Shown here: piece after piece, positions 6,448 to 40,766 of the stretch
Layout of the letters: each line of letters opens with the position of its first letter
Numbering within the stretch: position 1 is the stretch's first letter
NCBI GenBank assembly: GCA_018712245.1
Contig: DVHE01000056.1
Span: 16,980 to 80,979, forward strand
DNA from: Candidatus Avoscillospira avicola
Lineage (GTDB): Bacteria; Bacillota; Clostridia; Oscillospirales; Oscillospiraceae
Direction of reading: 5' to 3'
Length of the DNA stretch: 64,000 nt
Position numbers and translations under genes: made by a program
The notes under the pieces: model-generated
The model's input: the letters and a program-made list of their open reading frames with translations, nothing else
The model's database searches: none
Told to the model about the DNA's origin: nothing

Positions 6448-6902
6448 GGCAGCGCCGGCTTTACCATGACAAAGTTCGTGAGCAAGACGCCTTTCCTGAG
6501 AACTTGCTGCTCTCGAATGACCTGATAGCCGCGCTGCGAAAAAAAGGGCCGGGCCGTGATGGAGGCGTGGGTCTCATAGCGCGGCACGGCAAAATGTGCC
6601 TCCAGGGCATCGCACAATGCAGAGGCGACGCCCCGGCCCTGGTGCAGGTGGTGGACGTAGAGCCGGTCCAGATAGCCGGTCTTGTCCATGTCGCCAAAGC
6701 CGACGATCTCCCCTGCTTCCTCGGCCACCAGAGCAAAATGGGCCAGCAGCGAGGCATTGAAGGCCTGTAAATCCAGCTTCCCGTCTGCCCAGGCGTCCAG
6801 TTGTTGGGGAGAATAGTCCCGGGCATTAACGGTATGAACCGTTTCATAAAAGAGCCGGGCCAGGACCGGGCAGTCCTCCGGGCGGTAAGGTCTCAAAAAC
6901 AC
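6444..6902 (-). CDS. GNAT-family N-acetyltransferase
   Basis: 152 aa. LYVHHLHQGRGVASALCDALE matches the acetyl-CoA binding Q/RxxGxG/A motif. GTG start with AGGAG RBS. Confidence 0.8.
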   Translation of the reverse strand: MFLRPYRPEDCPVLARLFYETVHTVNARDYSPQQLDAWADGKLDLQAFNASLLAHFALVAEEAGEIVGFGDMDKTGYLDRLYVHHLHQGRGVASALCDALEAHFAVPRYETHASITARPFFSQRGYQVIREQQVLRKGVLLTNFVMVKPALP

Positions 6903-7095
6903 AGTGATTCTCCTCTCGGTTATTTATAAGAGCTGCACGCAGTTGACGGGTGCTGATAAGAAAGTTATTATTCCGGGCTGCCTCATGCCCTGTCACTCCC
7001 AAAGCCAGCACCGACAAGGTGGCTGCTTCCCTTGCGCCGCCTGACGGAGATCCTGATTGCCGTCAGTAACTTGAAATGTGGGCAGGTGAAACACA

Positions 7096-7512
7096 TTGAA
7101 AAAGACCATCAGAGAAAGCATTCATGCGCCTTATAGTTTGCACGATATGAACGTGACTGCATTCGAGGTAATAGGCAATACGCTTCGTATGCGAACACAT
7201 TCGGGAATGGTGGCAACAATGCCACCATATGGTCAACCAGACGGCTATGTGGAGTTTCATGAAGTTCAATGGGATTTTAGTTACGTTTATCTTCTTAGTC
7301 ATACCGGGAATGTCGGGACGTTCACGGGAAAGAAAATGTTTTTGATAGATTTTATCGCCGAACATCCTGCCCCCAACTTTTGTGTCATGGACGAGACATA
7401 CGGCTATCATGCAACGAAGTATAGCGGATACATCACAATCGCTGGAGAGTTCCACGAGGGCTTTATCGAGATTTACCATGAGGGCGATATGGTCTTTATT
7501 ACCGAAGAATAG
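7096..7512 (+). CDS. hypothetical protein in an AT-rich islet
   Basis: 138-aa ORF (TTG start; internal ATG alternatives exist). Followed by an intrinsic terminator. No motif I recognise. Composition is clearly AT-richer than the surroundings. Confidence 0.5.
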   Translation: MKKTIRESIHAPYSLHDMNVTAFEVIGNTLRMRTHSGMVATMPPYGQPDGYVEFHEVQWDFSYVYLLSHTGNVGTFTGKKMFLIDFIAEHPAPNFCVMDETYGYHATKYSGYITIAGEFHEGFIEIYHEGDMVFITEE

Positions 7513-7538
7513 AATAAATTTTAATACTAAAAAACGTG

Positions 7539-7580
7539 CCGTTGATCTCCACCTCGTGTGAAAGATCGGCGGTCTTTTTA
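7539..7580 (+). terminator. intrinsic terminator after the orphan gene
   Basis: Stem CCGTTGATCT / AGATCGGCGG (two G-U pairs) followed by TCTTTTTATT. Confidence 0.6.
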
Positions 7581-7610
7581 TTGCCATTTCCCTAAATATC
7601 GGAATAAGCG

Positions 7611-7649
7611 GATGAAACAGGAACGGCAAAACCGAAGGCATGCCGTTCC
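7611..7649 (-). terminator. probable terminator of the dlt-like operon
   Basis: 9-bp stem GGAACGGCA (7620..7628) / TGCCGTTCC (7641..7649). On the minus strand it is followed by UGUUUCAU. Lies 38 nt after the DUF2284 stop. Confidence 0.45.
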
Positions 7650-7686
7650 TGCAAAAAACAATTTTCTTTCTTATGCTACCCTGCTA

Positions 7687-8250
7687 TTACGCGTGCGGCT
7701 CTTTTGCGTCGTTCCAGTCAAAGAGATACATGCCAAAGAAGTTCACAATGCCAGGGCCGCTGTCGTACTCCATGCCACAGTCCTCCGCCAGCTTTTCCAC
7801 ATACACGCAGTACGCCGACATACAGGAAAACTGCTTGTCCGGGAAGCGGCAGGGCTCCCCTGCCGTGATGGCGCATGGGTTACAGAGATTGCAGCCGCTG
7901 GCGCCCACCATGATGCCATGGCTGACCTCCGAAAGCTGGTCGATGAGGCGGCGCACCATGCGGTTGTGCTGCCCCTTGGACGTCTTCAGCGCCGCGCTGT
8001 CCATGGCATCGTCCATTTGCCACATGGTTTGCAGCAGCAGGGCGTAGCGGTGCGACTTGGCCTTTTGCTCCATGTCCGCGGGACTGCCGCAGTCCGGCGG
8101 GCAGGAATAGTTGGCACCGTATTTGCCGCAGGTGTTGTCCTCGCAGCAGATTCGAAAGCCCGGCACGAAGGGAATGTCCTTTGTCTCCACCACGGCGGCG
8201 TTGGCAAAGCCCTGCTCCAGGGCCAGAGAGACCAGTTCCTCACAGTTCAT
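7687..8250 (-). CDS. DUF2284-like Cys-rich predicted metal-binding protein
   Basis: MNCEELVSLALEQGFANAAVV...CCEDNTCGKYGANYSCPPDC...GCNLCNPC. The ATG at 8250 overlaps the stop of the upstream small ORF (ATGAACTGTGA). The ORF track extends to 8265. Confidence 0.65.
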   Translation of the reverse strand: MNCEELVSLALEQGFANAAVVETKDIPFVPGFRICCEDNTCGKYGANYSCPPDCGSPADMEQKAKSHRYALLLQTMWQMDDAMDSAALKTSKGQHNRMVRRLIDQLSEVSHGIMVGASGCNLCNPCAITAGEPCRFPDKQFSCMSAYCVYVEKLAEDCGMEYDSGPGIVNFFGMYLFDWNDAKEPHA

Positions 8251-8380
8251 AGATGAATTCCCCATTCCCGGTGAAATAGATGCAAACCAGCAGCAGCATC
8301 ACGGCGTAGATCAGCCAGGTGATTGCCCGGCCTCCCCGCGTTTTGGGGAGCGATTGCAGTTTTTTCAAGAGAGAAGCCAC
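8240..8380 (-). CDS. DltX-like 46-aa membrane peptide (MASLLKKLQSLPKTRGGRAITWLIYAVMLLLVCIYFTGNGEFIYEL)
   Basis: Own translation. GTG at 8378..8380 lies 10 nt after GGAGG (complement of 8391..8395); alternative TTG start at 8366..8368 overlaps the upstream stop. Basic N-terminus, one TM helix, C-terminal G-rich linker plus FIYEL. Stop at 8240..8242. Confidence 0.6.
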   Translation of the reverse strand: MASLLKKLQSLPKTRGGRAITWLIYAVMLLLVCIYFTGNGEFIYEL

Positions 8381-9249
8381 GGGTCAATCGCCTCCGTAAA
8401 GCAGTATGCGCCATACTCATAGTTAAGATGGCCGATGTCGTAAAAGCAGGATGCGTCCAGGGCAGACTCCATGTCCAAAAACTCCACGCCTTTTTCCTCG
8501 CACAGCGCCTTGGCCTGGTCGTAGACGGCCCGGGTCTCAGTGGAAACCTCCAGCGTGGGGTTGAGCGGCATCCAAACGGCCCGCAGCCGAATGCCGTTTC
8601 GCTGGCAGTAGTCCGCCAATTTGGAGAGGGCCGAAAGATTCTCCTGGAAGTCCTCGATGGGAAGGTGGGAATAAGGAGACTTGGCCACCTTCTCCTCCAG
8701 GGCCTCCTGGGAAAGGGAGCCGGTGTAGTGGGATTTCTGCCGGTCGGCATAGAGGACGGCGGGCGCCTGCCGGGTCAAGAGGCTCTTGGCCCCCTCCTCC
8801 AGGAAGATGCGCAGCCGGTCTCGCTGGAAATAGCAGTACGGTTCATAGAAGGCCTTGTGCCAGGGATAGGTCGGGTTGGTTTCAAAATCGTCATAGAGCG
8901 TCAGGTCGGAAAGGCCCACCACCAGATCGCTTCCCACGGTGATGATGCCTTTGTCCACCATCTCCCATAGGTCCTCCACGACGCCGTAGTCCAGTCCGAG
9001 GTTTACATAACCGCTTTCGCTGACGTCCTCCCGATAGGCGGAGATCACGACGGAGTTGCCGAAAAAGACTTTGTCCCATACCTCCTCCGGGTGGTCGCGG
9101 CGCGTCAGCTCATAGTCATTGAGGACGAAGCGCCCACTCTGGATGAGATAGGGCTGGAACAGGGCGGCCACGACGGTGTCCAGCACGATGACGGCCACCA
9201 ACAGCAACAGCAGGAAGCTGTTTCGCTTGCAAAATTGGAGAAATTTCAT
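8365..9249 (-). CDS. membrane-anchored SGNH-like protein, DltD/AlgJ-type O-acyltransferase partner
   Basis: Starts MKFLQFCKRNSFLLLLLVAVIVL (N-terminal anchor; ATG 9247..9249 abuts the MBOAT stop). FFGNSVV is a candidate nucleophile block and FYDIGHLN is a DxxH block near the C-terminus. Confidence 0.65.
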   Translation of the reverse strand: MKFLQFCKRNSFLLLLLVAVIVLDTVVAALFQPYLIQSGRFVLNDYELTRRDHPEEVWDKVFFGNSVVISAYREDVSESGYVNLGLDYGVVEDLWEMVDKGIITVGSDLVVGLSDLTLYDDFETNPTYPWHKAFYEPYCYFQRDRLRIFLEEGAKSLLTRQAPAVLYADRQKSHYTGSLSQEALEEKVAKSPYSHLPIEDFQENLSALSKLADYCQRNGIRLRAVWMPLNPTLEVSTETRAVYDQAKALCEEKGVEFLDMESALDASCFYDIGHLNYEYGAYCFTEAIDPWLLS

Positions 9250-10412
9250 AGCCGGAAGAACCCCCTTATGGCCTGCAGCAGCTGGGAACCGCTCATGGTG
9301 AAGAACATGGCGTTGACGGCAAACAGGCCGAAGACCACCAGGCACCGGAAGACGTAGAGCGCCTTGGGCGTTCTGCGCTTATCCACCGTGGTGAGGCCGG
9401 TGAGATTCTCCAGAGCCAGGACGCCGCCCATATATAGGCCGGTGCAGAGGGCCGGAAGGCTGAACTCATGCCAAAGGCTCATCACCAGCATGGTGACGAG
9501 GCCGATCAACGCGGAAATCCACTTGTTGAGCCGCTTCCCGTTGACCACCACGAAGATATGCTCCCGGATGAAGTCGCTGAGGGTGACGTGCCATCTCCGC
9601 CAGAACTGGGTGAAGCTGGCGGCTTGCCACGGTTTTTTGAAGTTTTCCGGCACCGGGATGCCCATAAAGGTGCCAACGGCGATGGCAATATCGCTGTAGC
9701 CGGAGAGGTCCACATACAAAATGAGGTAGCTCAGCACGGCCAGGGCGCCGCTGACATAGAAGTGGGACGACATTTGCAGCACCCGGTTGAGCGCCTTGAG
9801 CAAAAACGCCGCCACCACCAGCTTTTTGAAAAGGCCCAGGATCAGCCGCTTGACCGAGGCCTCCGCCGTGGAAGCCGTCAGGATCTTGGGGGCCTGATAC
9901 GCCTTGAGGAAGTCCCGGTAGCGGAAGATGGGGCCCGCTGTCAGCACCGGGAAAAAGAGCAGATAGTTGGCATAGGCGAGAAGCGGGATTCTTTCCCCGG
10001 TGTAGTAGACATAAAATACCGCGTCCACCGCCTTGAGCATATTGTAGGCAAAGCCCACCAAGACGATCCACTGGGGCAGCGCCGGGAAAAAGGCCGCGCT
10101 GCGGGTGTAAAAGAGCGGGGCCACGTCCAGCAGACAGAACAGTACGAAACAGAATTTCCGGCCCCGCCGGATTTTCCCGATGCTCCAGGCCAGCAGGTAG
10201 CTGACCAGGGTATAGGCCGCGTAAAAGGCCAGGAGCTTCCAGTCCACGTAGAGCAGAAGCCCCAGGTCCAGCACCAGCAGCCACGGTGTCAGCGCCTTGC
10301 CGGGCCGGAAGCGGGCCAGCAAGGCGCTGGCCGCTGCAAATAGAACAGCCGCTGCCAACATCAATAGCAGGGTGTCTACCTTGAGATACCACATACGAAA
10401 TAATTCTCCCAT
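9246..10412 (-). CDS. MBOAT-family membrane O-acyltransferase (DltB/AlgI type)
   Basis: 388 aa and polytopic. FTQFWRRWHVTLSDFIREHIF and the downstream conserved His in MSLWHEFS are the MBOAT signature. The start may be the Met at 10394. Confidence 0.85.
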   Translation of the reverse strand: MGELFRMWYLKVDTLLLMLAAAVLFAAASALLARFRPGKALTPWLLVLDLGLLLYVDWKLLAFYAAYTLVSYLLAWSIGKIRRGRKFCFVLFCLLDVAPLFYTRSAAFFPALPQWIVLVGFAYNMLKAVDAVFYVYYTGERIPLLAYANYLLFFPVLTAGPIFRYRDFLKAYQAPKILTASTAEASVKRLILGLFKKLVVAAFLLKALNRVLQMSSHFYVSGALAVLSYLILYVDLSGYSDIAIAVGTFMGIPVPENFKKPWQAASFTQFWRRWHVTLSDFIREHIFVVVNGKRLNKWISALIGLVTMLVMSLWHEFSLPALCTGLYMGGVLALENLTGLTTVDKRRTPKALYVFRCLVVFGLFAVNAMFFTMSGSQLLQAIRGFFRL

Positions 10413-10433: not shown

Positions 10434-10685
10434 TTAGCCCTTCAGTTTCCGCTCCACCACTTCCGCGATCTCGTTGACGGTGTTCATGGGATAGAGCGTG
10501 ATATCCTTCTGGGTGATCTGGATGTGGAAGGTCTCCTCCAGGAAGAGGACGATCTCCGTGGCGCCCAGCGAGTCCACAAAGCCGTAGTCAAAGAGATGGA
10601 CGTCGTCGCCGAAATCGGGGTCGTCGGCCTCAATCTGAAAATGCTCCAGAATATAGCTGCGCAGCGTGTCTTTTACATTGTCCAT
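10434..10685 (-). CDS. DltC-like aminoacyl/acyl carrier protein
   Basis: 83 aa and acidic. Phosphopantetheine-attachment motif GFVDSLGATEIV. Confidence 0.85.
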   Translation of the reverse strand: MDNVKDTLRSYILEHFQIEADDPDFGDDVHLFDYGFVDSLGATEIVLFLEETFHIQITQKDITLYPMNTVNEIAEVVERKLKG

Positions 10686-10694
10686 GGTGATACC

Positions 10695-11186
10695 TCATTT
10701 CTTATCATTGGATTGCAGCGTCTTGCTGCATATGGTGGCCACAGGCGTCATGCCATGGCCGGACCAGTAGGCCTGGGCTGCCGCATTTCCCGGGAGGATT
10801 TGCAGCTGCATGACGTTTATCCCGTTTTCCTGGAGCCAGGTTTCTGCAAAAGCCGTCAGTCGCCGGGCCAGGCCCTGGCGGCGGGCGGCGGGGGATACAT
10901 AGAGATCGTTGAGGAAGCCCACGCTGGCTGCGCCCTGGCAGAGATACTCCGGGCTCAGCCGCAGGATCGAGCAGAACACAAAGCCCAATAGCGTCCCGCC
11001 GGTGTCCTCCGCCACAGCGGTGAGGATCAACCGGGAGCGGATGCGCGTCTCCAGCACCCGGGGCAGGGCCTCGTCGTTGAGGTCATAGTTCATACCGCAG
11101 GTCAAAAGGCCCTGATGGTAGCTCCGATAGAGCGCCAGCAGCTGGGGAAGGTCCTCCTGCCGGGCCTCGCGAATGGTCAGTTCCAT
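10695..11186 (-). CDS. GNAT-family N-acetyltransferase embedded in the dlt-like operon
   Basis: 163 aa. LYVSPAARRQGLARRL is the acetyl-CoA binding motif. 9-nt gaps to both neighbours. Confidence 0.8.
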   Translation of the reverse strand: MELTIREARQEDLPQLLALYRSYHQGLLTCGMNYDLNDEALPRVLETRIRSRLILTAVAEDTGGTLLGFVFCSILRLSPEYLCQGAASVGFLNDLYVSPAARRQGLARRLTAFAETWLQENGINVMQLQILPGNAAAQAYWSGHGMTPVATICSKTLQSNDKK

Positions 11187-11195
11187 GAAACCACC

Positions 11196-12707
11196 TCAGA
11201 GCATGGCCTTGAGGGCGACGCGGTCGATCTTGCGGTTGGCGTTCAGCGGCAGGGCCTCCATGCAGACCAGCTTGCCGGGGAGCATATACTTGGGGATATA
11301 TTTCCCCAGCTCCACGTTGAGCCGCCGGAGCGTCAGCGCTTTGGACGTTTCGACATAGAGAACGATCCGCTCGTTCTCCGCGTCGAACACGGCACAGGCA
11401 TTGGCAATGCAGGGGACGCACCGGGCGGCGGTCTCAATGTCGCCCATTTCGATTCGGTTGCCGCGGAGTTTGATCTGGCTGTCCTTCCGGCCTACGTACT
11501 GGATGAGGCCGTCGGCCTCGCGGTAGGCAAGGTCGCCGGTGCGGTACATGGGCTCCGGGAAGGCGCGGTTGAGGGGATTTGTGACAAAGTGGCGTGCTGT
11601 CTCCCCGGGATTGTTCCAGTAGCCCAGGGCCAGCTGGCTGCCCACCACGCAAAGCTCGCCGGTCTCCCCTGCCGCGGCCTCAGTGTCGTCGTCCCGGAGG
11701 ATCAGCACCCGCATATTGGGCCGGGCATAGCCGATGGGCAGCGGGTCGGAGTCAGAAAATTCCCGGTCCACGTTGTAGATCGTGCAGTCCACGGTGATCT
11801 CCGTGGGGCCGTAGAGGTTGGAGTAGAGGCAGTTCGGCAGCGCTTTGCGCCAGATGTTCAGCTGCTTGTTGGGCATGACCTCTCCGGCGAAGACCACGGT
11901 CTGGAGGTCCGGCAGCGCCACGGTATCCAGCGCGCCGGAGTTGGCCACGCTGCACATGACGGTGGGCACCCAGAAGACGCAGCTGACCCGCTTTTCCGCC
12001 ACGTACTCCATCAGCTTCACCGGGTACATAAAGAGGATTTCCGGGATGATTAGCACCTTGGCCCCGGTGAGGACCGCGGCGTAGAGGTCAAAGACCGAGT
12101 TGTCAAAGTGGAAGCCCGACTGGAGACCGATGATCGTGTCCTTTGTAATGCCGTAGCTCTCGGCGATGAAGGCGGCATAGTCCAACACGCCCCGGTGGGG
12201 AATCACCACGCCCTTGGGTGTACCGGTGGAGCCGGAAGTGTACATAATATAGGCTGGGTCTGTATCCACGGTGGCGTCCACCGTGCGATAAAGAGCCTCT
12301 TCGTCTTCGTGACCGGCAGTCAAGGTGACATAATCCAGAAGCAGAGATTCCGGCAGGTCCAGGCTCTGGAGCTTGCCTCTCCCCTCTTCATTGGTGATGA
12401 TGCAGCTGGGCCGGAGGTTCTGGAGGGTCTTTTCGGTCCGGTTGGCCGGGGCGGTATAGTCCAGCGGTGCGTAGGGCGCGCCGCAGTAGAGGGCGGCGTA
12501 AAAGCTGACGACGCAGCCGCAGCTCTTGGGCAGGTAAACGGCCACAGGGCCGCCCTTTTTGACGCCGTGGGCCAGCAGCGCCGTAGCGGCAATGCGGGCC
12601 GCAGTGCGCAAGGCCTTATAGGTCATTTCACCGTCGCTGTCCTCCAGGGCGACGGCCTGGGGCAGCTGAGCGGCGGTGCGCTCCAGCAGGCAGACAATGG
12701 AGTTCAT
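11196..12707 (-). CDS. stand-alone amino-acid adenylation enzyme, DltA-type (paralog 1)
   Basis: 503 aa. Core motifs YIMYTSGSTGTPKGV, FHFDNSVFD, NLYGPTE, GELCVVGSQLALGYW, YRTGDLA, GRKDSQIKLRGNRIEMGDIE, NRKIDR. No C or T domain. Confidence 0.9.
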   Translation of the reverse strand: MNSIVCLLERTAAQLPQAVALEDSDGEMTYKALRTAARIAATALLAHGVKKGGPVAVYLPKSCGCVVSFYAALYCGAPYAPLDYTAPANRTEKTLQNLRPSCIITNEEGRGKLQSLDLPESLLLDYVTLTAGHEDEEALYRTVDATVDTDPAYIMYTSGSTGTPKGVVIPHRGVLDYAAFIAESYGITKDTIIGLQSGFHFDNSVFDLYAAVLTGAKVLIIPEILFMYPVKLMEYVAEKRVSCVFWVPTVMCSVANSGALDTVALPDLQTVVFAGEVMPNKQLNIWRKALPNCLYSNLYGPTEITVDCTIYNVDREFSDSDPLPIGYARPNMRVLILRDDDTEAAAGETGELCVVGSQLALGYWNNPGETARHFVTNPLNRAFPEPMYRTGDLAYREADGLIQYVGRKDSQIKLRGNRIEMGDIETAARCVPCIANACAVFDAENERIVLYVETSKALTLRRLNVELGKYIPKYMLPGKLVCMEALPLNANRKIDRVALKAML

Positions 12708-12915
12708 GGTGGGTCTCCTTTCAAATGACGATCCGGGTTGTCAATGGCTCCCCTGTGTAAGGGGAGCTGGCTCTCGAAGCGAGACTGAGGGGTTGTCCAC
12801 GCCCGACGAACAACTGCTGACAAGTGTCGGGAAAGCGAGCAGCCATTGCCGCTTCTGATCCCCTCCGGCACGGCGAAGCCGTGCCACCTCCCCTTGGAGA
12901 CCAAGGGGAGGCTAA
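12708..12915 (-). repeat. hairpin-rich GC-rich spacer between the two ligase genes (REP/MITE-like element candidate)
   Basis: Perfect stems: 11 bp (12887..12911, loop AGA), 8 bp (12867..12885, loop GAA), 7 bp (12747..12767). No U-tract after any of them. It is the only large gap in the operon. Confidence 0.5.
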
Positions 12916-14430
12916 TCAAGTCTCAAGGCTTTTGCGGAGCGTCACCCGGTCGATCTTGTCATTGGCGGTGTGGGGGAGCTTCTCCATAGGCACCAGCTTG
13001 GCTGGGAGCATATACTGCGGGATATACCGCTTCAGCTCCAGGTTGAACTTCCGCAGCGGAAGCGTCCCCTGGGTCTCCACAAAGAGGACGATCTGCTCAT
13101 GCTCGGCGTCGAAGATGGCGGCGGCGTTTTCCACGCCCGCCACACACATGGCGGCGGTTTCGATCTCGCCCAGCTCAATGCGGTTGCCCTTGAGCTTGAT
13201 CTGGTTGTCCTTTCTGCCGCAGAATTGCAGCAATCCGTCCGCATCCCAATAGGCCAGATCGCCGGTGTGGTAGAGCCGCTCGGCGTAGTCCGGCGTCAGC
13301 GGATTTTGCGTGAAGGCCCGGGCGGTAATTTCCGGAGCGTTCCAATAGCCCAGCGCCACACCGCTGCCGATGACGCAGAGTTCTCCCTGCTCCCCCGGCG
13401 CGGCCTCCTTCCCGTCCTCGGTCAGCAGCACCACGCGCATATTTTCGCAGGCACGGCCAATGGGCAGAGGGTCGGCGTCGTCAAAGGCCCGGTCCACGAT
13501 ATAGTAGCAGCAGACGTCGGTAATTTCCGTGGGACCGTAGAGATTGGCGTAGGTGCAGTGGGGCAGCGCCTGGCGCCAGAGGTTCAGCTGCTTATTGGGC
13601 ATGACCTCGCCGCAGAAGGCGACGGTTCGGAGCTGGGGCAGCTCGATGCCCTCCAGGGCGCCGGAGTTGGCCACGTTGATCATCACTGTGGGCACCCAGA
13701 AAATGGAGGTGATCTCCTTTTCCCGCAGGAATTCGGGCAGCCGCAGCGGGAAGAGCATCAGGACATCCGGGATCAGCACCAGCTTGCCGCCGCAATGGAG
13801 ACTGCCGTAGATATCGAAAGTGGAGTTGTCGAAGTAGAAGGGCGCCTGGTTGGCCATGACGGTCGTTTCGTCAAAGCGGAAGGTCGTCACCACCCAGTCT
13901 GCGTAGTCAATAATCCCCCGGTGGGGAATGGTGACGCCCTTGGGCGTACCGGTGGAGCCGGAGGTGTACATAATATAGATGGGGTCGGAGTCCACCACCT
14001 GCGCCAGGGCGGAAGCCACGGCGGCTTCGTCCACCGGTGCGGCAGACAGCTCCTCAATCAGCGCTACCTGCGCGCCCAGGAGGTCGATGGCGGTGAGATT
14101 TTCCGCCAGCTCCCGGCTGGTGATGAGGACGCCGGGCGTCAGACTTTCGACGATTTTTTGAAGTCGCGTCATGGGAATGTGGGAATCCACCGGGGCATAG
14201 GGGCTGCCGGCGTACATGGCGCCCATGAACGCGCAGACCATCCCGGCGCTCTTGGGCAGATACACCACGACGGGACGCCGGGCGCTGCCCATCGCCAGCA
14301 GGCCGGAGCCAATGGCCAAGGCACGCTGCCGGTAGGCTTCATAAGTGAGGCTCTCCTGCTCATCCTCCAGGGCAACGCGGGCGCCGAAGCGTGCCGCGGC
14401 CTCGTCAAGCATACAAACTGCTGAATTCAT
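12916..14430 (-). CDS. stand-alone amino-acid adenylation enzyme, DltA-type (paralog 2)
   Basis: 504 aa. YIMYTSGSTGTPKGV, FYFDNSTFD, NLYGPTE, GELCVIGSGVALGYW, YHTGDLA, GRKDNQIKLKGNRIELGEIE, NDKIDR. Start overlaps the upstream stop (ATGA 14427..14430). Confidence 0.9.
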   Translation of the reverse strand: MNSAVCMLDEAAARFGARVALEDEQESLTYEAYRQRALAIGSGLLAMGSARRPVVVYLPKSAGMVCAFMGAMYAGSPYAPVDSHIPMTRLQKIVESLTPGVLITSRELAENLTAIDLLGAQVALIEELSAAPVDEAAVASALAQVVDSDPIYIMYTSGSTGTPKGVTIPHRGIIDYADWVVTTFRFDETTVMANQAPFYFDNSTFDIYGSLHCGGKLVLIPDVLMLFPLRLPEFLREKEITSIFWVPTVMINVANSGALEGIELPQLRTVAFCGEVMPNKQLNLWRQALPHCTYANLYGPTEITDVCCYYIVDRAFDDADPLPIGRACENMRVVLLTEDGKEAAPGEQGELCVIGSGVALGYWNAPEITARAFTQNPLTPDYAERLYHTGDLAYWDADGLLQFCGRKDNQIKLKGNRIELGEIETAAMCVAGVENAAAIFDAEHEQIVLFVETQGTLPLRKFNLELKRYIPQYMLPAKLVPMEKLPHTANDKIDRVTLRKSLET

Positions 14431-17408
14431 CCGTCTGTCTCCTTGCTGAAGCGAAGGGACAGGGTGTCCGCCTCGCCGTATTTGGTGAAAATGGTTTTGC
14501 CGTCCCGGGTCTCCACGTCCCAGCCGGCGCTGGCGGCGACGGCGTCTCCCTCCACTACTACTTGCAGCATTCCATCGGCCTCAAAGGCGATCTCTGCCCC
14601 GTTGGACAAAAGGGTGATGTCCGCCGGCAGATTGACCTGCGTCAGATGGGCTGTCTGGGAGGGCTCCCCTGCCGTTAAGGTGACGGGGCGGTTGAGAGAG
14701 ACGAAGAGGCTATTGCCCCGCTGATACCAGACGTCTGCGTCCACCGCAAAGGCCGCGGCGCTGTGGTCCTGGGAGAACTGAACCTCCACGCCCACAGAAG
14801 TATCGTCTTTGGCGGCAATGGTCAGCGCACCGTTCTGGGTTTTGGCGTCCACTGTCAGGGCCAGCGCTTCGGCGGAAGCTGCCATCAGCTGATCCTCCCG
14901 GACGAAATTATAACCGAATTTCCACTGGAAGTCCGAGACCTTTTGCAGGTAGTCCCGGGCGCCTAAGTCGCTCTCATAGACGAAGTCACAGTGGTAGTAG
15001 ATGCACACCGGCATTCTGTATTCGCCGGAGAGATCGGTCCAGGCGCTGTCCACATAGGGCAGGACGGAGTTATCCTGCACCAGCAGTGTCCCCTCCCCGT
15101 CCTTCTGGAGGAAGAACGGCAGGGCGATGACGTTTTCCGCCGCGTACTGCGGCGCTACGCCGGTATCGTAGGCCGGTGAGAAGCCGGAGTTCCAGAGGAG
15201 TCCGGCGGCGTATTCGCTGTCAAAGGTCTGGGTGTCGCCCAGGTTGCTGGAGTACCAGGTGTGGAGATTGGCGCCGATGCCCTCGGTGGGCAAGCCATAG
15301 GCCTCAAAGGCCTCCAGGTGGCGCTCCAGTTCATAAGCTTCGCGGGCTTCCGACGCACCGGCATTGGAGTAGTGGTGGATGCCCACATAGAGGTGATGCG
15401 CCTCGGCGAAGTCCACCTGGGCCTCCAGCGCCGCCCGCTCCGGGAAGTAGGGCGAATCGATGGGATAGGCCAGGCCGTACTCCAGGGAGCCGCAGACCAG
15501 GTCCAGCGCGCCGTCGCCGTCGAGATCGTAGAAGGCAGGCACGGCGTAGGTGCCGAATTTGGCCCGGTCATTGCCCTTGTAGTTTTGCTCGTCCAGGGTG
15601 ATATAGCCGTTGAAGGCAAAGCCGCCTTGACCGTCGTTCAGGAAAATGGCCAGATATCCCTCAAAGAGGCCCACCACCAGGTCCTGGTATCCGTCACCAT
15701 TCCAGTCCACCTGGCCGGGGGCAAGCCACTGGCCCAGTTCCGCATCGGCACAGAGCCGGGAGAGGCTGGACATCCGGCTGTGGTCAAAGGAGACGGTGCC
15801 GTCGATATTCTGGCCGTAGTACACCAGAAGGACGCCGCTGTCACTGCCCACGGCCAGGTCCACGGTGCCGTCGCCGTTGAAGTCCCCGACGCAGGGCAGG
15901 GACTGACCGGGCAGGTCTGTGGTAAACAGAAGCCCCTGGGGCGTGAAGTGGCCGTTGGGGTCTCCGGCAAACCAATAGATGCCGCCGTCACTGCTGCCGC
16001 TGAGGAGGTCCATGCGTCCATCTCCGTTTAGATCGACCAGCTGCGGCGCGGAGTAGCCCGCCACCTGGAGGGGATAACCGTCGGCATCGGTCAAAAGTGA
16101 AGGCTCGCGCACATGGAGTCGGTCCGAGTATTCCAGGATTTCATAGGCGTAGAAATAGCCGTCCTCGCTGCCGGAGACCAGCATCTCCTTCCCCTGAATG
16201 GCACCGAAGGCCGGATAAGCCCGGTAGTCATACTCCGGATACTCCCGGAAGTAACTGCCTGCGTCCTCGATGGAGTTGATTTGCAGCCACTGGTCGTTGC
16301 AGGCGATGTGGGTGCCCGAGGAGTAGGCGCTCTCTTCCCAGTCCATGGCAAAGTCCATGCCGTCATCGCTCTGGTTTAAGAGATACGTGACGGTCTCGGT
16401 GCGGAGGAACCACCAATAGCTGCTGCGGATCAGCGTATAGGAGGGAATCTGGTGGTATTCCTCGCAGAGATCGTAAAAGAGCTTCATGGAGTTGTGGGCG
16501 ATGCCGGTCATCTCTTCATAGTGAAGCTCCCAGCTCATGGAGGGACTGCCGTTGTAGCCATAGACCCGGTTCAGGGCGTATCCAAACTGCTTTTTGGCAG
16601 CCAACGTGGCCACACCACTGTAAAAGAGCTGGTTGCAGCTGGTGGTGGTGGCGGAAAATGCAGTTTCCTCCCCGGTGCGGCGGGTCATGGAGAAGTTGCC
16701 CAGGGAATAGACGTTGGGCAGCAGCGGGTTGGTCAGCAGTACGGCGCCTTCGCCATAGGCCCGGTAGGTGTAGAGTGCCAGCTCTCCCCACATGGCCAGC
16801 GGCTCCGCCGCATCCGGGACGAAACCATAGCCGTAATCCTGCTGGGAGAGGACGTCATAGTCATAGAAATCCGGGTAGAGGCCGGAGAAGTCCTCCACCA
16901 AGGTTTGCAGCGGCTGGAGGTCTTCCTCCACCGTCGGGAAGGTCAGCTCCACCGGACAGCCGGTGAGGGGCACGACCTCCCGAATCCCCAGATAGTCTGC
17001 GGAAAAGAGCGGCGCGAAGGCATTGTCCAACAGCACATAGCCGCCCGCCTCCGTATAGGCGATCAGTAACGCCTCATAGGCGGCGATGTTGGGAGAATTG
17101 GCCAGCGCCGCGGCGGGGATTACCAGGTCGTACTGGGAGAGATCCGAGACCTCCTCCAGGTTAACCAGCTCTGTGGTGAGGCCCAACAGCGTGGACTGCT
17201 CCAAAAGCTCTGCCACGTCCTGCGGCGCGGCCATGTCACAAGTGCTGTCATAAGCCACGGCGACCTGGAGCGCATAGGTGAGGCCGTCCGGCAGCGGGTC
17301 TGCCGCATGGGGCGTCTGCGCCGCTTCCTGGGGCTGGCTGCATCCACTGAAAGCCAGGCATAGAATTAAGAAAAGCGCCGCGAGCCGGCGCAGTGTGTGT
17401 TGCTTCAA
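14427..17408 (-). CDS. large lipoprotein with a central FG-GAP/VCBS-type repeat block
   Basis: Likely TTG start at 17406..17408, 8 nt after GGAGGA, giving MKQHTLRRLAALFLILCLAFSGC (lipobox). Four DxNGDGxxDL-type repeats (DLNGDGRMDL, DFNGDGTVDL, DWNGDGYQDL, DLDGDGALDL) at about 15476..16181. Confidence 0.8.
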   Translation of the reverse strand: MKQHTLRRLAALFLILCLAFSGCSQPQEAAQTPHAADPLPDGLTYALQVAVAYDSTCDMAAPQDVAELLEQSTLLGLTTELVNLEEVSDLSQYDLVIPAAALANSPNIAAYEALLIAYTEAGGYVLLDNAFAPLFSADYLGIREVVPLTGCPVELTFPTVEEDLQPLQTLVEDFSGLYPDFYDYDVLSQQDYGYGFVPDAAEPLAMWGELALYTYRAYGEGAVLLTNPLLPNVYSLGNFSMTRRTGEETAFSATTTSCNQLFYSGVATLAAKKQFGYALNRVYGYNGSPSMSWELHYEEMTGIAHNSMKLFYDLCEEYHQIPSYTLIRSSYWWFLRTETVTYLLNQSDDGMDFAMDWEESAYSSGTHIACNDQWLQINSIEDAGSYFREYPEYDYRAYPAFGAIQGKEMLVSGSEDGYFYAYEILEYSDRLHVREPSLLTDADGYPLQVAGYSAPQLVDLNGDGRMDLLSGSSDGGIYWFAGDPNGHFTPQGLLFTTDLPGQSLPCVGDFNGDGTVDLAVGSDSGVLLVYYGQNIDGTVSFDHSRMSSLSRLCADAELGQWLAPGQVDWNGDGYQDLVVGLFEGYLAIFLNDGQGGFAFNGYITLDEQNYKGNDRAKFGTYAVPAFYDLDGDGALDLVCGSLEYGLAYPIDSPYFPERAALEAQVDFAEAHHLYVGIHHYSNAGASEAREAYELERHLEAFEAYGLPTEGIGANLHTWYSSNLGDTQTFDSEYAAGLLWNSGFSPAYDTGVAPQYAAENVIALPFFLQKDGEGTLLVQDNSVLPYVDSAWTDLSGEYRMPVCIYYHCDFVYESDLGARDYLQKVSDFQWKFGYNFVREDQLMAASAEALALTVDAKTQNGALTIAAKDDTSVGVEVQFSQDHSAAAFAVDADVWYQRGNSLFVSLNRPVTLTAGEPSQTAHLTQVNLPADITLLSNGAEIAFEADGMLQVVVEGDAVAASAGWDVETRDGKTIFTKYGEADTLSLRFSKETDG

Positions 17409-17488
17409 GGGTGATTCCTCCAAAGATGCCGCTGCGATTAACTTCTGCCTCTCGGAAAAACGCAGCAGCGCACTGCCTAAACATGAAA

Positions 17489-33384: not shown

Positions 33385-33632
33385 AAAAAAGCCCTCTGTC
33401 TGACGACAGAGGGCGAAAACTCGCGGTACCACCTCAGGTTCGCCGCAGCCTCGCGGGTGCGGCCTCACGGAGTCGGAGACTCCCGGCTGTAACGGGCCAC
33501 CCGGCGCACCCTACTCTTCGTTCAGGCCGCTGCTCCAAGGCGTATTCGGGCAGGACGTCCGCCTCCTTGCACCAACCGGAGGCTCTCTTCAGGGCGCGAT
33601 CTGCCGTACTGTTCCTTTTCCTCGCATGTATC
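33385..33632 (-). promoter_or_regulatory. T-box riboswitch leader, tyrosine specifier (UAC)
   Basis: Minus strand shows AGAGAG (complement of 33581..33590), distal GGUUGGUGCAAGG, and GAA-UAC-G specifier (codon at 33542..33544). T-box sequence GGUGGUACCGCG is at 33422..33433. Terminator stem 33391..33414 plus U6 (33385..33390). Confidence 0.85.
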
Positions 33633-40077: not shown

Positions 40078-40099
40078 AAATTGCCTCCAAAGAAAAATA

Positions 40100-40730
40100 A
40101 TGGCAGCAAATCAGGTTAATCTTACGGCTTAGGTCGGGTAGGATTTCCCCGGCGGCTGCTCCCCGTCGCCGTGGGAGCGGTTTCCCATGAAAGCCGCCGT
40201 CTTTCCGTTGCCGAGAAAGCAACCCGATTGCCACTGAGTCCGTACTGCAATCCCTGATTTGCTCTGTTAAGACAGCCTAGGTGATTTCCACAACAGCGTC
40301 CATCGACTCTTATCCTCTTTTGCAAGCAGGCTTTCGAGAGGCAATATCGCGCCTCGCCCCTGGCCTGGGGTCTGCGCGCCTGACACCTCTGTCCCGATCT
40401 GCTCACGCAAGGCAGGCTACGCTGTACACAGCGCTCCGGAAAGCCGTTGCACCGCGATACAGGTTCTCATCCTGCCTCGTACAGAGGTCGCTTTGACCGC
40501 TTGGGAGTACGCCTCTGCACAACAGCAGGTCTCCACAGCGGCAGGGTCGGGGTCTCCATGCCATTGGAGGCCGCCCTTCCGCCGCAGGCGTAATTGTTAC
40601 GCCTTCCTTCAGCACCCACCCCAAACTGGGCGTAAGAAGCAGGCACCAAAGGTTTCACAGTTATGCCCTTTAAAGGATTTTTAGGCCCTTCCTGGGAGCC
40701 GGGGATACTGACTAGGATACTGCGCCATTA
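40100..40730 (-). ncRNA. ole: OLE (ornate, large, extremophilic) RNA candidate; ends approximate
   Basis: About 630 nt with no credible ORF in an otherwise coding-dense region. Has its own promoter. Many local stems (e.g. 40587..40603, 40420..40433). Synteny with oapA-dxs-tlyA-nadK-argR-recN matches the published OLE locus. Not confirmed by a covariance model. Confidence 0.65.
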
Positions 40731-40737
40731 TTTTGTT

Positions 40738-40766
40738 AGTATAGCACATTATTCATGGATATACAA
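40738..40766 (-). promoter_or_regulatory. putative promoter of the OLE-oapA unit
   Basis: Minus strand: TTGTAT (40761..40766), 17 nt, TATACT (40738..40743), inside an AT-rich patch. Confidence 0.5.

Follow-up and report, generated by a model that had tools for sequence, protein, structure and literature searches.

A 46-residue microprotein resembling DltX is a likely acyl shuttle in a divergent Dlt-like operon of gut Oscillospiraceae

DltX of the Dlt system is a microprotein of ~48 amino acids (aa); the Bacillus thuringiensis sequence is MERLKEIWSRPLTQWVAKTVYYLAILFALLWLYGFHDTNTSTFIYNEF (PMC5541007). Two reports describe the Tyr residue of its C-terminal FxYxxF tail as taking D-Ala from DltB and passing it to the serine of DltD (PMC12148441, PMC13653941), and the same C-terminal tail binds in a pocket of DltD (PMC13653941). 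Other bacterial MBOATs carry this motif fused to their own C terminus (PMC12148441), and described examples of the shuttle motif include FIYNEF in DltX and FIYANF in PatA of Neisseria gonorrhoeae (PMC12148441, PMC13653941, PMC5541007). MBOAT pathways other than Dlt have been stated to be without a DltX-like microprotein (PMC12148441). Here we describe a gene of 46 codons, at positions 8240 to 8380 on the minus strand of a 64,000-nucleotide (nt) stretch of Candidatus Avoscillospira avicola DNA (contig DVHE01000056.1, positions 16,980 to 80,979; “the window” below means the whole of this stretch), that stands at the end of an operon encoding an FG-GAP repeat protein, two amino-acid-adenylating ligases, a GNAT acetyltransferase, a carrier protein, a DltB-like MBOAT, and a DltD-like SGNH protein, in that order. 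Its product is a candidate acyl shuttle of the DltX type.

Read from 8380 to 8240, the minus strand encodes MASLLKKLQSLPKTRGGRAITWLIYAVMLLLVCIYFTGNGEFIYEL and then a stop, with a GTG start codon at 8380-8378 and a TGA stop codon at 8242-8240. A ribosome-binding site, GGAGG (8394-8390), lies within the last codons of the upstream SGNH gene (8365-9252, minus strand), with a spacing of 10 nt to the GTG, and in the window the SGNH and microprotein genes overlap by 16 nt. There is also an in-frame TTG at codon 5 (8368-8366), which shares the sequence TTGA with the TGA stop codon of the SGNH gene (8367-8365). A first-pass annotation of the window, made from the sequence alone, had described this minus-strand frame, the GTG 10 nt after GGAGG, and the TTG overlapping the upstream stop codon, and all of these are present as it described them, with the qualification that the orthologues favor the GTG start (see below). 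It erred at the other end of the gene, where it had the microprotein stop codon overlapping the ATG of the downstream DUF2284 gene (7687-8250, minus strand; Pfam DUF2284, E = 1.5e-38). That ATG (8250-8248) sits instead within the codons for Y44 and E45, so that the two genes overlap by 11 nt, and an in-frame ATG farther upstream, at 8265, is an alternative start for DUF2284. The same annotation regarded the open reading frame (ORF) as unlisted, which holds for an ORF track with a 60-aa cutoff and does not hold for GenBank, where the exact window peptide is carried as HIR51002.1, “hypothetical protein,” from Candidatus Avoscillospira avicola.

The window DNA is 59% GC here, and 11 kb of it contains 117 ORFs of 30 aa or more. 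The presence of the ORF by itself is therefore not beyond chance in this DNA, and conservation is the deciding evidence. We scanned genomes with the upstream SGNH protein and obtained 20 related Oscillospiraceae loci, which came from metagenome-assembled genomes of Candidatus Avoscillospira, Avilachnospira, and Scatomorpha and from the cultured organism Agathobaculum desmolans ATCC 43058 (locus L010). At 17 of the 20 loci, an ORF of 46 to 48 aa starts within the final codons of the SGNH gene; among the 3 loci that do not show it, 2 (L017 and L019) end at that point. All 17 orthologous loci have GGAGG at the identical spacing, followed by ATG or GTG and then GCT, and because the orthologues thus share a Met-Ala start, the real start codon of the microprotein gene is the GTG and not the TTG. 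A family hidden Markov model (HMM) found exactly one match per locus and one in the whole window.

Length differences among the orthologues are whole codons, i.e., in-frame insertions or deletions only. In pairwise Nei-Gojobori comparisons, the median proportions of synonymous (pS) and nonsynonymous (pN) differences were 0.62 and 0.31, respectively, and for the C-terminal half of the microprotein they were 0.64 and 0.19. The entropies of the first, second, and third codon positions were 0.78, 0.57, and 1.15, the third positions varying most. The microprotein gene is under purifying selection, and conservation of the frame, which the first-pass annotation had put forward as a check on its proposal, was clearly borne out by the 17 loci, the in-frame indels, and the excess of pS over pN. 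We are nearly certain that this is a real gene. A search of 5.8 billion proteins returned eight called homologues of 43 to 47 aa, and when 1.84 billion representatives were searched with the family profile, 59 clusters (50% identity) matched at E <= 1e-3. The A. desmolans orthologue, WP_154658738.1, is likewise named “hypothetical protein” in GenBank and RefSeq; public pipelines call the gene and assign it no function.

The peptide has three parts. Residues 1 to 18 carry a net charge of +5; residues 19 to 37 (AITWLIYAVMLLLVCIYFT; 8270-8326, minus strand) are hydrophobic, with 15-residue Kyte-Doolittle windows of 2.0 to 2.7, and are predicted by this measure and by AlphaFold2 to form a single transmembrane helix; and the tail, GNGEFIYEL, is acidic (net charge, -2). 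The AlphaFold2 model, which is of low to moderate confidence, has helices at residues 2 to 13 and 15 to 37 and a coil tail. The tail ends in F42-I43-Y44-E45-L46 (8243-8257, minus strand), of which F42 to E45 are invariant, and the codon for Tyr44, which by analogy would be the acyl-accepting residue, is at 8251-8249. Across 21 family sequences the invariant residues are M1, A2, A26, M28, F36, G38, G40, F42, I43, Y44, and E45, and the family signature is YAxMLxLVLxFFTG(N/H)GxFIYE[G/A]F. The DltX architecture that the first-pass annotation had seen in the peptide holds: the N terminus is basic, there is a single helix at ~19-37, and the short acidic tail bears an invariant F-I-Y-E.

Most relatives end in FIYE[A/G/T]F, which is to say in FxYxxF. 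Three residues follow the Tyr in 47 of 62 family tails, 43 of which end in Phe and so match FxYxxF exactly and 4 of which end in Leu; these three-residue tails include FIYEGF (21 tails), FIYEAF (14 tails), FIYETF (5 tails), and others. In a further 14 of the 62 tails, two residues follow the Tyr, as in FIYEL (8 tails), FIYEV, FLYEI, FIYEG, and FIYEK. The earlier remark that the tail is one residue shorter than that of DltX is thus correct for the window copy, and the two-residue form is shared by these other members. FIYEL is a derived, recurrent shorter variant in a family that otherwise matches FxYxxF. We rejected the idea that FIYEL is an artefact of the overlap with DUF2284, since the same ending is found in L023 to L025 and in distant clusters; by tblastn, L023 to L025 have no DUF2284, and in L025 the downstream gene is on the opposite strand.

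The profile search also brought to light variants of unusual construction. Five of them (P0016, P0018, P0022, P0026, and P0035; e.g., L030:1034-1318) begin MAERTEM and are extended on the cytoplasmic, N-terminal side by a long stretch of low complexity in which Ala, Gly, Ser, and Pro abound; the extension brings the protein to as much as 153 aa and leaves the transmembrane helix and FIYEGF unaltered. In three mutually divergent clusters, P0034 (L022:1561-3159), P0037, and P0041 (L031:84-1559), a DltX-like transmembrane helix and FIYEA[F/L] form the C terminus of a polytopic protein of 386 to 532 aa. For P0034 there is a Pfam match to PMT_2, one of the GT-C glycosyltransferase families, and the L022 fusion gene comes after the MBOAT and SGNH genes. 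We found no description, in the literature searched, of a GT-C-like protein that carries an acyl-shuttle module as a fusion.

When the family was aligned with B. thuringiensis DltX by hhalign, the two matched from end to end, tail on tail (P = 1.9e-4), with a score of 21.7. As controls we used shuffled sequences in which the composition of the N-terminal, transmembrane, and tail segments was kept; these scored 10.6 +/- 2.9, and 1 of 200 reached the real score. When the N terminus and transmembrane segment alone were shuffled, 0 of 200 reached 21.7, and when the tail alone was shuffled, 11 of 200 did so. From these shuffle controls, the similarity to DltX therefore spans both the residue order of the helix and the motif. 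DltX is also the Pfam family matched by more members than any other (7 of 21 at E <= 1; best E, 0.02), and one distant member, whose alignment runs through to the last part of the DltX model, gave E = 0.0011 and 18.9 bits, which is below the gathering score of 25.

The family thus resembles DltX in its length (~45 to 50 aa), its basic N terminus, its one transmembrane helix, and its C-terminal F-I-Y, with a predicted N-in/C-out topology for the window peptide, and in its genomic setting beside genes for a ligase, a carrier, and DltB-like (MBOAT) and DltD-like (SGNH) proteins; the sequence similarity is weak but collinear. It differs from DltX in having a signature that ends in FIYE[G/A]F and not in FIYNEF, and the window copy differs further in its shorter linker, its FIYEL ending, and its subthreshold scores in Pfam and NCBIfam. 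Gene order also sets the two apart: dltX comes first, before dltA (PMC5541007), whereas the microprotein gene comes directly after that for the SGNH protein, overlaps it, and usually closes the operon. That the gene stands after the MBOAT and DltD-like genes and not at the front had been pointed out in the first-pass annotation, and the position after SGNH proved to be the rule for the family. PatA of N. gonorrhoeae offers a second comparison, with an F-x-Y (in FIYANF) at an extracytoplasmic C terminus beside an SGNH transferase (PMC12148441). The arrangement described here departs from the PatA type in that the motif is on a separate microprotein, the MBOAT is of the short DltB type, and the donor would be not acyl-CoA but a carrier protein that an adenylating ligase has loaded.

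By analogy with DltX, we consider the microprotein likely to be an acyl shuttle belonging to an envelope operon that is Dlt-like, divergent, and uncharacterised. It would be a bitopic membrane protein, with its N terminus predicted to be cytoplasmic and its C terminus outside. One or two stand-alone ligases would adenylate an amino acid and load it onto the 83-aa carrier; the DltB-like MBOAT would move the amino-acyl group across the membrane onto Tyr44 of the F-I-Y-E-L tail at the outer face; the tail would then swing into the active site of the SGNH protein and acylate Ser67; and the SGNH protein would finally esterify an envelope acceptor. We infer the acylation of Tyr44, the order of transfer, and the membrane topology; what is transferred is probably an amino acid. 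We do not assume D-Ala or teichoic acid, because the partner proteins are far below the Dlt cutoffs and because the module has extra conserved components, namely, the FG-GAP protein, often a GNAT protein, sometimes a second ligase, and, at one locus, a ligase resembling an aminoacyl-tRNA synthetase (aaRS).

A number of findings weigh against assigning the microprotein to a DltX-type role. The window copy does not match the exact hexapeptide F-x-Y-x-x-F, as FIYEL has neither a sixth residue nor the final Phe, and the linker between its transmembrane helix and the motif is ~4 residues, versus ~9 in B. thuringiensis DltX. The comparison with the Pfam DltX model (PF12459), which had been suggested as a check by the first-pass annotation, did produce a match, but one that falls short of the threshold (13.7 bits, E = 0.047, against a gathering score of 25; even the best relative has the 18.9 bits given above), and Ion_trans_2, an unrelated transmembrane family whose match is spurious, scores slightly above DltX for this peptide. 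NCBIfam has no family matching the window peptide at E <= 10. No canonical FIYNEF DltX was found among the 59 significant representatives of the family profile search. Lastly, L020, a complete locus from Ornithomonoglobus, shows no such ORF within 12.8 kb in searches by motif, by HMM, and for hydrophobic ORFs with a Tyr tail, and it retains the ligases, carrier, MBOAT, and SGNH protein despite the absence of the microprotein. A search with B. thuringiensis DltX returned B. cereus-group sequences only, and a search with both the family profile and B. thuringiensis DltX of a PDB set that contained no DltX chain returned only unrelated transmembrane helices. The microprotein family is, on these comparisons, a distant relative or close analogue of DltX that forms a sequence family of its own, below the curated DltX thresholds.

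The partner proteins encoded upstream, all on the minus strand, bear on what the system might be. The SGNH-fold protein (8365-9252; 295 aa) is DltD-like and predicted to be membrane anchored: its AlphaFold2 model (predicted local distance difference test [pLDDT] score, 94.7) has an N-terminal helix followed by an SGNH fold, and Foldseek retrieved GDSL esterases, among them DltD (7dxm, E = 6.7e-4; 6o93) and PatB (7tlv). No substitutions occur at G65 and D272 among 38 homologues, and few at N66, S67, and H275; by analogy we read S67, D272, and H275 as the catalytic triad. The N-terminal membrane anchor, the SGNH fold, and the conserved Ser, Asp, and His positions are thus as in DltD and PatB. 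The protein differs from DltD in its length, which is ~100 residues less (295 aa versus ~390 to 420 aa), and in giving no Pfam DltD match, both of which argue against a canonical Dlt system; it matched no Pfam family at all, and a PDB sequence search yielded only noise. Pfam DltD is matched weakly by 9 of the 38 homologues, and the homologue at L026 passes its threshold (23.6 versus 22.7 bits). Many of the SGNH homologues have a weak precomputed match to the newer Pfam family PF27429 (“LB_356”).

Upstream of the SGNH gene is that for the DltB-like MBOAT (9246-10412; 388 aa, with the start perhaps at an internal Met at 10394), which matches Pfam MBOAT at E = 1.7e-25. Its sole NCBIfam match is TIGR04091 dltB, at 152.2 bits against a cutoff of 375, and its best PDB matches are the DltB structures 8jem and 6bug (E ~8e-23). 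The MBOAT C terminus (...QAIRGFFRL) contains no fused FxYxxF shuttle motif, and the protein has a WHEF sequence with its His at residue 315. An MBOAT and an SGNH-fold partner with Ser, Asp, and His are encoded together here, the combination by which MBOAT-SGNH envelope acyltransferases are recognized. Next come the genes for the 83-aa carrier protein (10434-10685; Pfam PP-binding, E = 1.3e-8), which reaches 32.5 bits with DltC models against a cutoff of 68, and for the GNAT acetyltransferase (10695-11186), a Pfam match that is frequent and not universal in the module. Two genes for stand-alone amino-acid-adenylating ligases follow. Ligase 2 (11196-12707) is a DltA-like paralogue that scores 350 bits with TIGR01733 and 276.4 bits with the DltA equivalog (cutoff, 559.85), and ligase 1 (12916-14430), also DltA-like, is the copy retained in single-ligase loci and scores 309.5 bits against the same cutoff. 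The two are ~55% identical, both have matches in the PDB, many relatives have one ligase, and the 208-nt gap between the two genes (12708-12915) holds no recognisable gene. The operon is headed by the gene for the 998-aa FG-GAP repeat protein (14427-17423; Pfam FG-GAP_3, E = 1.3e-21), the N terminus of which (...LAFSGC) we take, by eye, to be lipoprotein-like. This protein may be a partner in the pathway or may be related to its acceptor.

Across loci, the order FG-GAP, ligase (one or two), optional GNAT, carrier, MBOAT, SGNH, and microprotein is kept, and distant family members of 36 to 43 aa occupy the same module. The FG-GAP protein is found in most related loci, distant ones included. A GNAT gene is present at L001 to L006, L018, L023, L024, L026, L028, and L029 and is absent from L010 (A. 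desmolans). The invariant feature is an overlap of 8 to 19 nt between the SGNH and microprotein genes, seen even where the order is permuted (L026). The microprotein gene is translationally coupled to the SGNH gene, and the overlap of the two fits the reported contacts between DltD and DltX (PMC13653941). The downstream side is another matter. DUF2284 follows only in the window and in L001, and elsewhere its place is taken by a terminator-like hairpin or by unrelated genes; because of this distribution, coupling to DUF2284 is incidental, lineage specific, and not part of the system. Of the coupling to both neighbours claimed in the first-pass annotation, the SGNH side is therefore conserved and the DUF2284 side is confined to the window and its closest relative. 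A scan for terminators across 6900-8500 of the window found none.

Three loci stand apart in their gene content. At L026 (4018-11315) the order is carrier, a class II aaRS-like ligase (tRNA-synt_2b, 27 bits), GNAT, SGNH, microprotein, MBOAT, and FG-GAP, so that the type of ligase is swapped and the overlap of the SGNH and microprotein genes is retained. At L020 (6001-7300) and L017 (6001-6939) there are two ligases, and no FG-GAP gene is among the tblastn matches. At both of these loci, what we take by eye to be a gene for a DUF805-like membrane protein comes after the SGNH gene, in the place of the microprotein gene. No hidden shuttle ORF was found at L017 by the motif, HMM, and hydrophobic Tyr-tail ORF searches; this locus ends shortly past its SGNH gene.

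Other explanations of the microprotein have to be set against a shuttle function. The least probable, and one to which we give almost no weight, is that the ORF arose by chance in GC-rich DNA or is conserved only through signals that overlap it, such as the 3' end of the SGNH gene, the start of DUF2284, or an RNA element. Small ORFs are indeed plentiful (117 of at least 30 aa per 11 kb), and both ends of this one overlap its neighbours, but of its 141 nt no more than 16 and 11 lie in the overlaps; codons 25 to 45, the most conserved, overlap nothing in most loci, substitutions are concentrated at third codon positions, Rfam has no match at the ORF, and DUF2284 is absent from most loci. A second alternative accepts the gene and gives its product a structural or assembly role, as an anchor or chaperone of the SGNH protein, with the tail serving as a binding epitope and not as a covalent carrier. 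Such a role would agree with the fact that the gene is invariably adjacent and translationally coupled to the SGNH gene, and a C-terminal peptide of DltX has been reported to bind DltD (PMC13653941). We nevertheless think it improbable: the distance from the invariant Tyr to the C terminus equals that in DltX and PatA, where acyl-Tyr has been proven (PMC12148441), and the MBOAT has no fused motif, so that no other shuttle residue is evident.

A less remote alternative, which is still unlikely in our judgment, is that the microprotein is simply the DltX of a true but divergent dlt operon, dealing in D-alanine and teichoic acid and departing from the norm in gene order alone. All five Dlt roles are present, and the best named matches of the proteins are to Dlt (DltA subfamily at 315.7 bits, dltB, DltC, and DltD). 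The scores, however, lie far under the NCBIfam Dlt equivalogs (309 versus 560, 152 versus 375, and 32.5 versus 68 bits), with all four partner proteins falling below the canonical cutoffs, and the SGNH protein of the window is short and without a Pfam DltD match, as described above. The module, moreover, usually includes a GNAT protein and the ~1,000-aa FG-GAP protein, sometimes has two ligases, and at one locus uses a class II aaRS-like ligase in place of the DltA type. Somewhat better placed, though we put it forward tentatively and at less than even chances, is the proposal that the cluster is an undescribed pathway of envelope amino-acylation distinct from teichoic-acid D-alanylation. If this is true, a different amino acid would be moved, possibly one N-acetylated by the frequent GNAT protein, and the acceptor would be linked to the ~1,000-aa FG-GAP protein or to a GT-C glycosyltransferase, PMT_2-type examples of which carry the fused shuttle module in some relatives. 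The pathway would then have its own lineage of shuttle microproteins, and the endings FIYEL, FIYEV, FIYEG, and FIYEK would mean that the “invariant” hexapeptide can do without its terminal Phe.

Acylations that alter the charge of the envelope influence how bacteria resist antimicrobial peptides and how they interact with the host. A shuttle function for the microprotein would point to an uncharacterised modification system of this general kind in abundant gut commensals, one carrier of which, A. desmolans ATCC 43058, can be cultivated, and its mechanism would be predictable by analogy. We found no description of the microprotein family in the literature searched. As a second, sequence-distinct family that is widespread in gut Oscillospiraceae, it would contradict the statement that MBOAT pathways other than Dlt are without a DltX-like microprotein (PMC12148441). 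The family also supplies natural variants with which the requirements of a shuttle tail could be probed, in its tail length, its short linker, and its N-terminal extensions, and further variants in the fusion to a GT-C membrane protein, the permuted operons, and the alternative type of ligase.

Elsewhere in the window, we noted a full-length OLE (ornate large extremophilic) RNA at 40084-40744 on the minus strand (430.8 bits, E = 3.7e-123) and a T-box leader at 33406-33631, also on the minus strand (110.6 bits, against a gathering score of 93).

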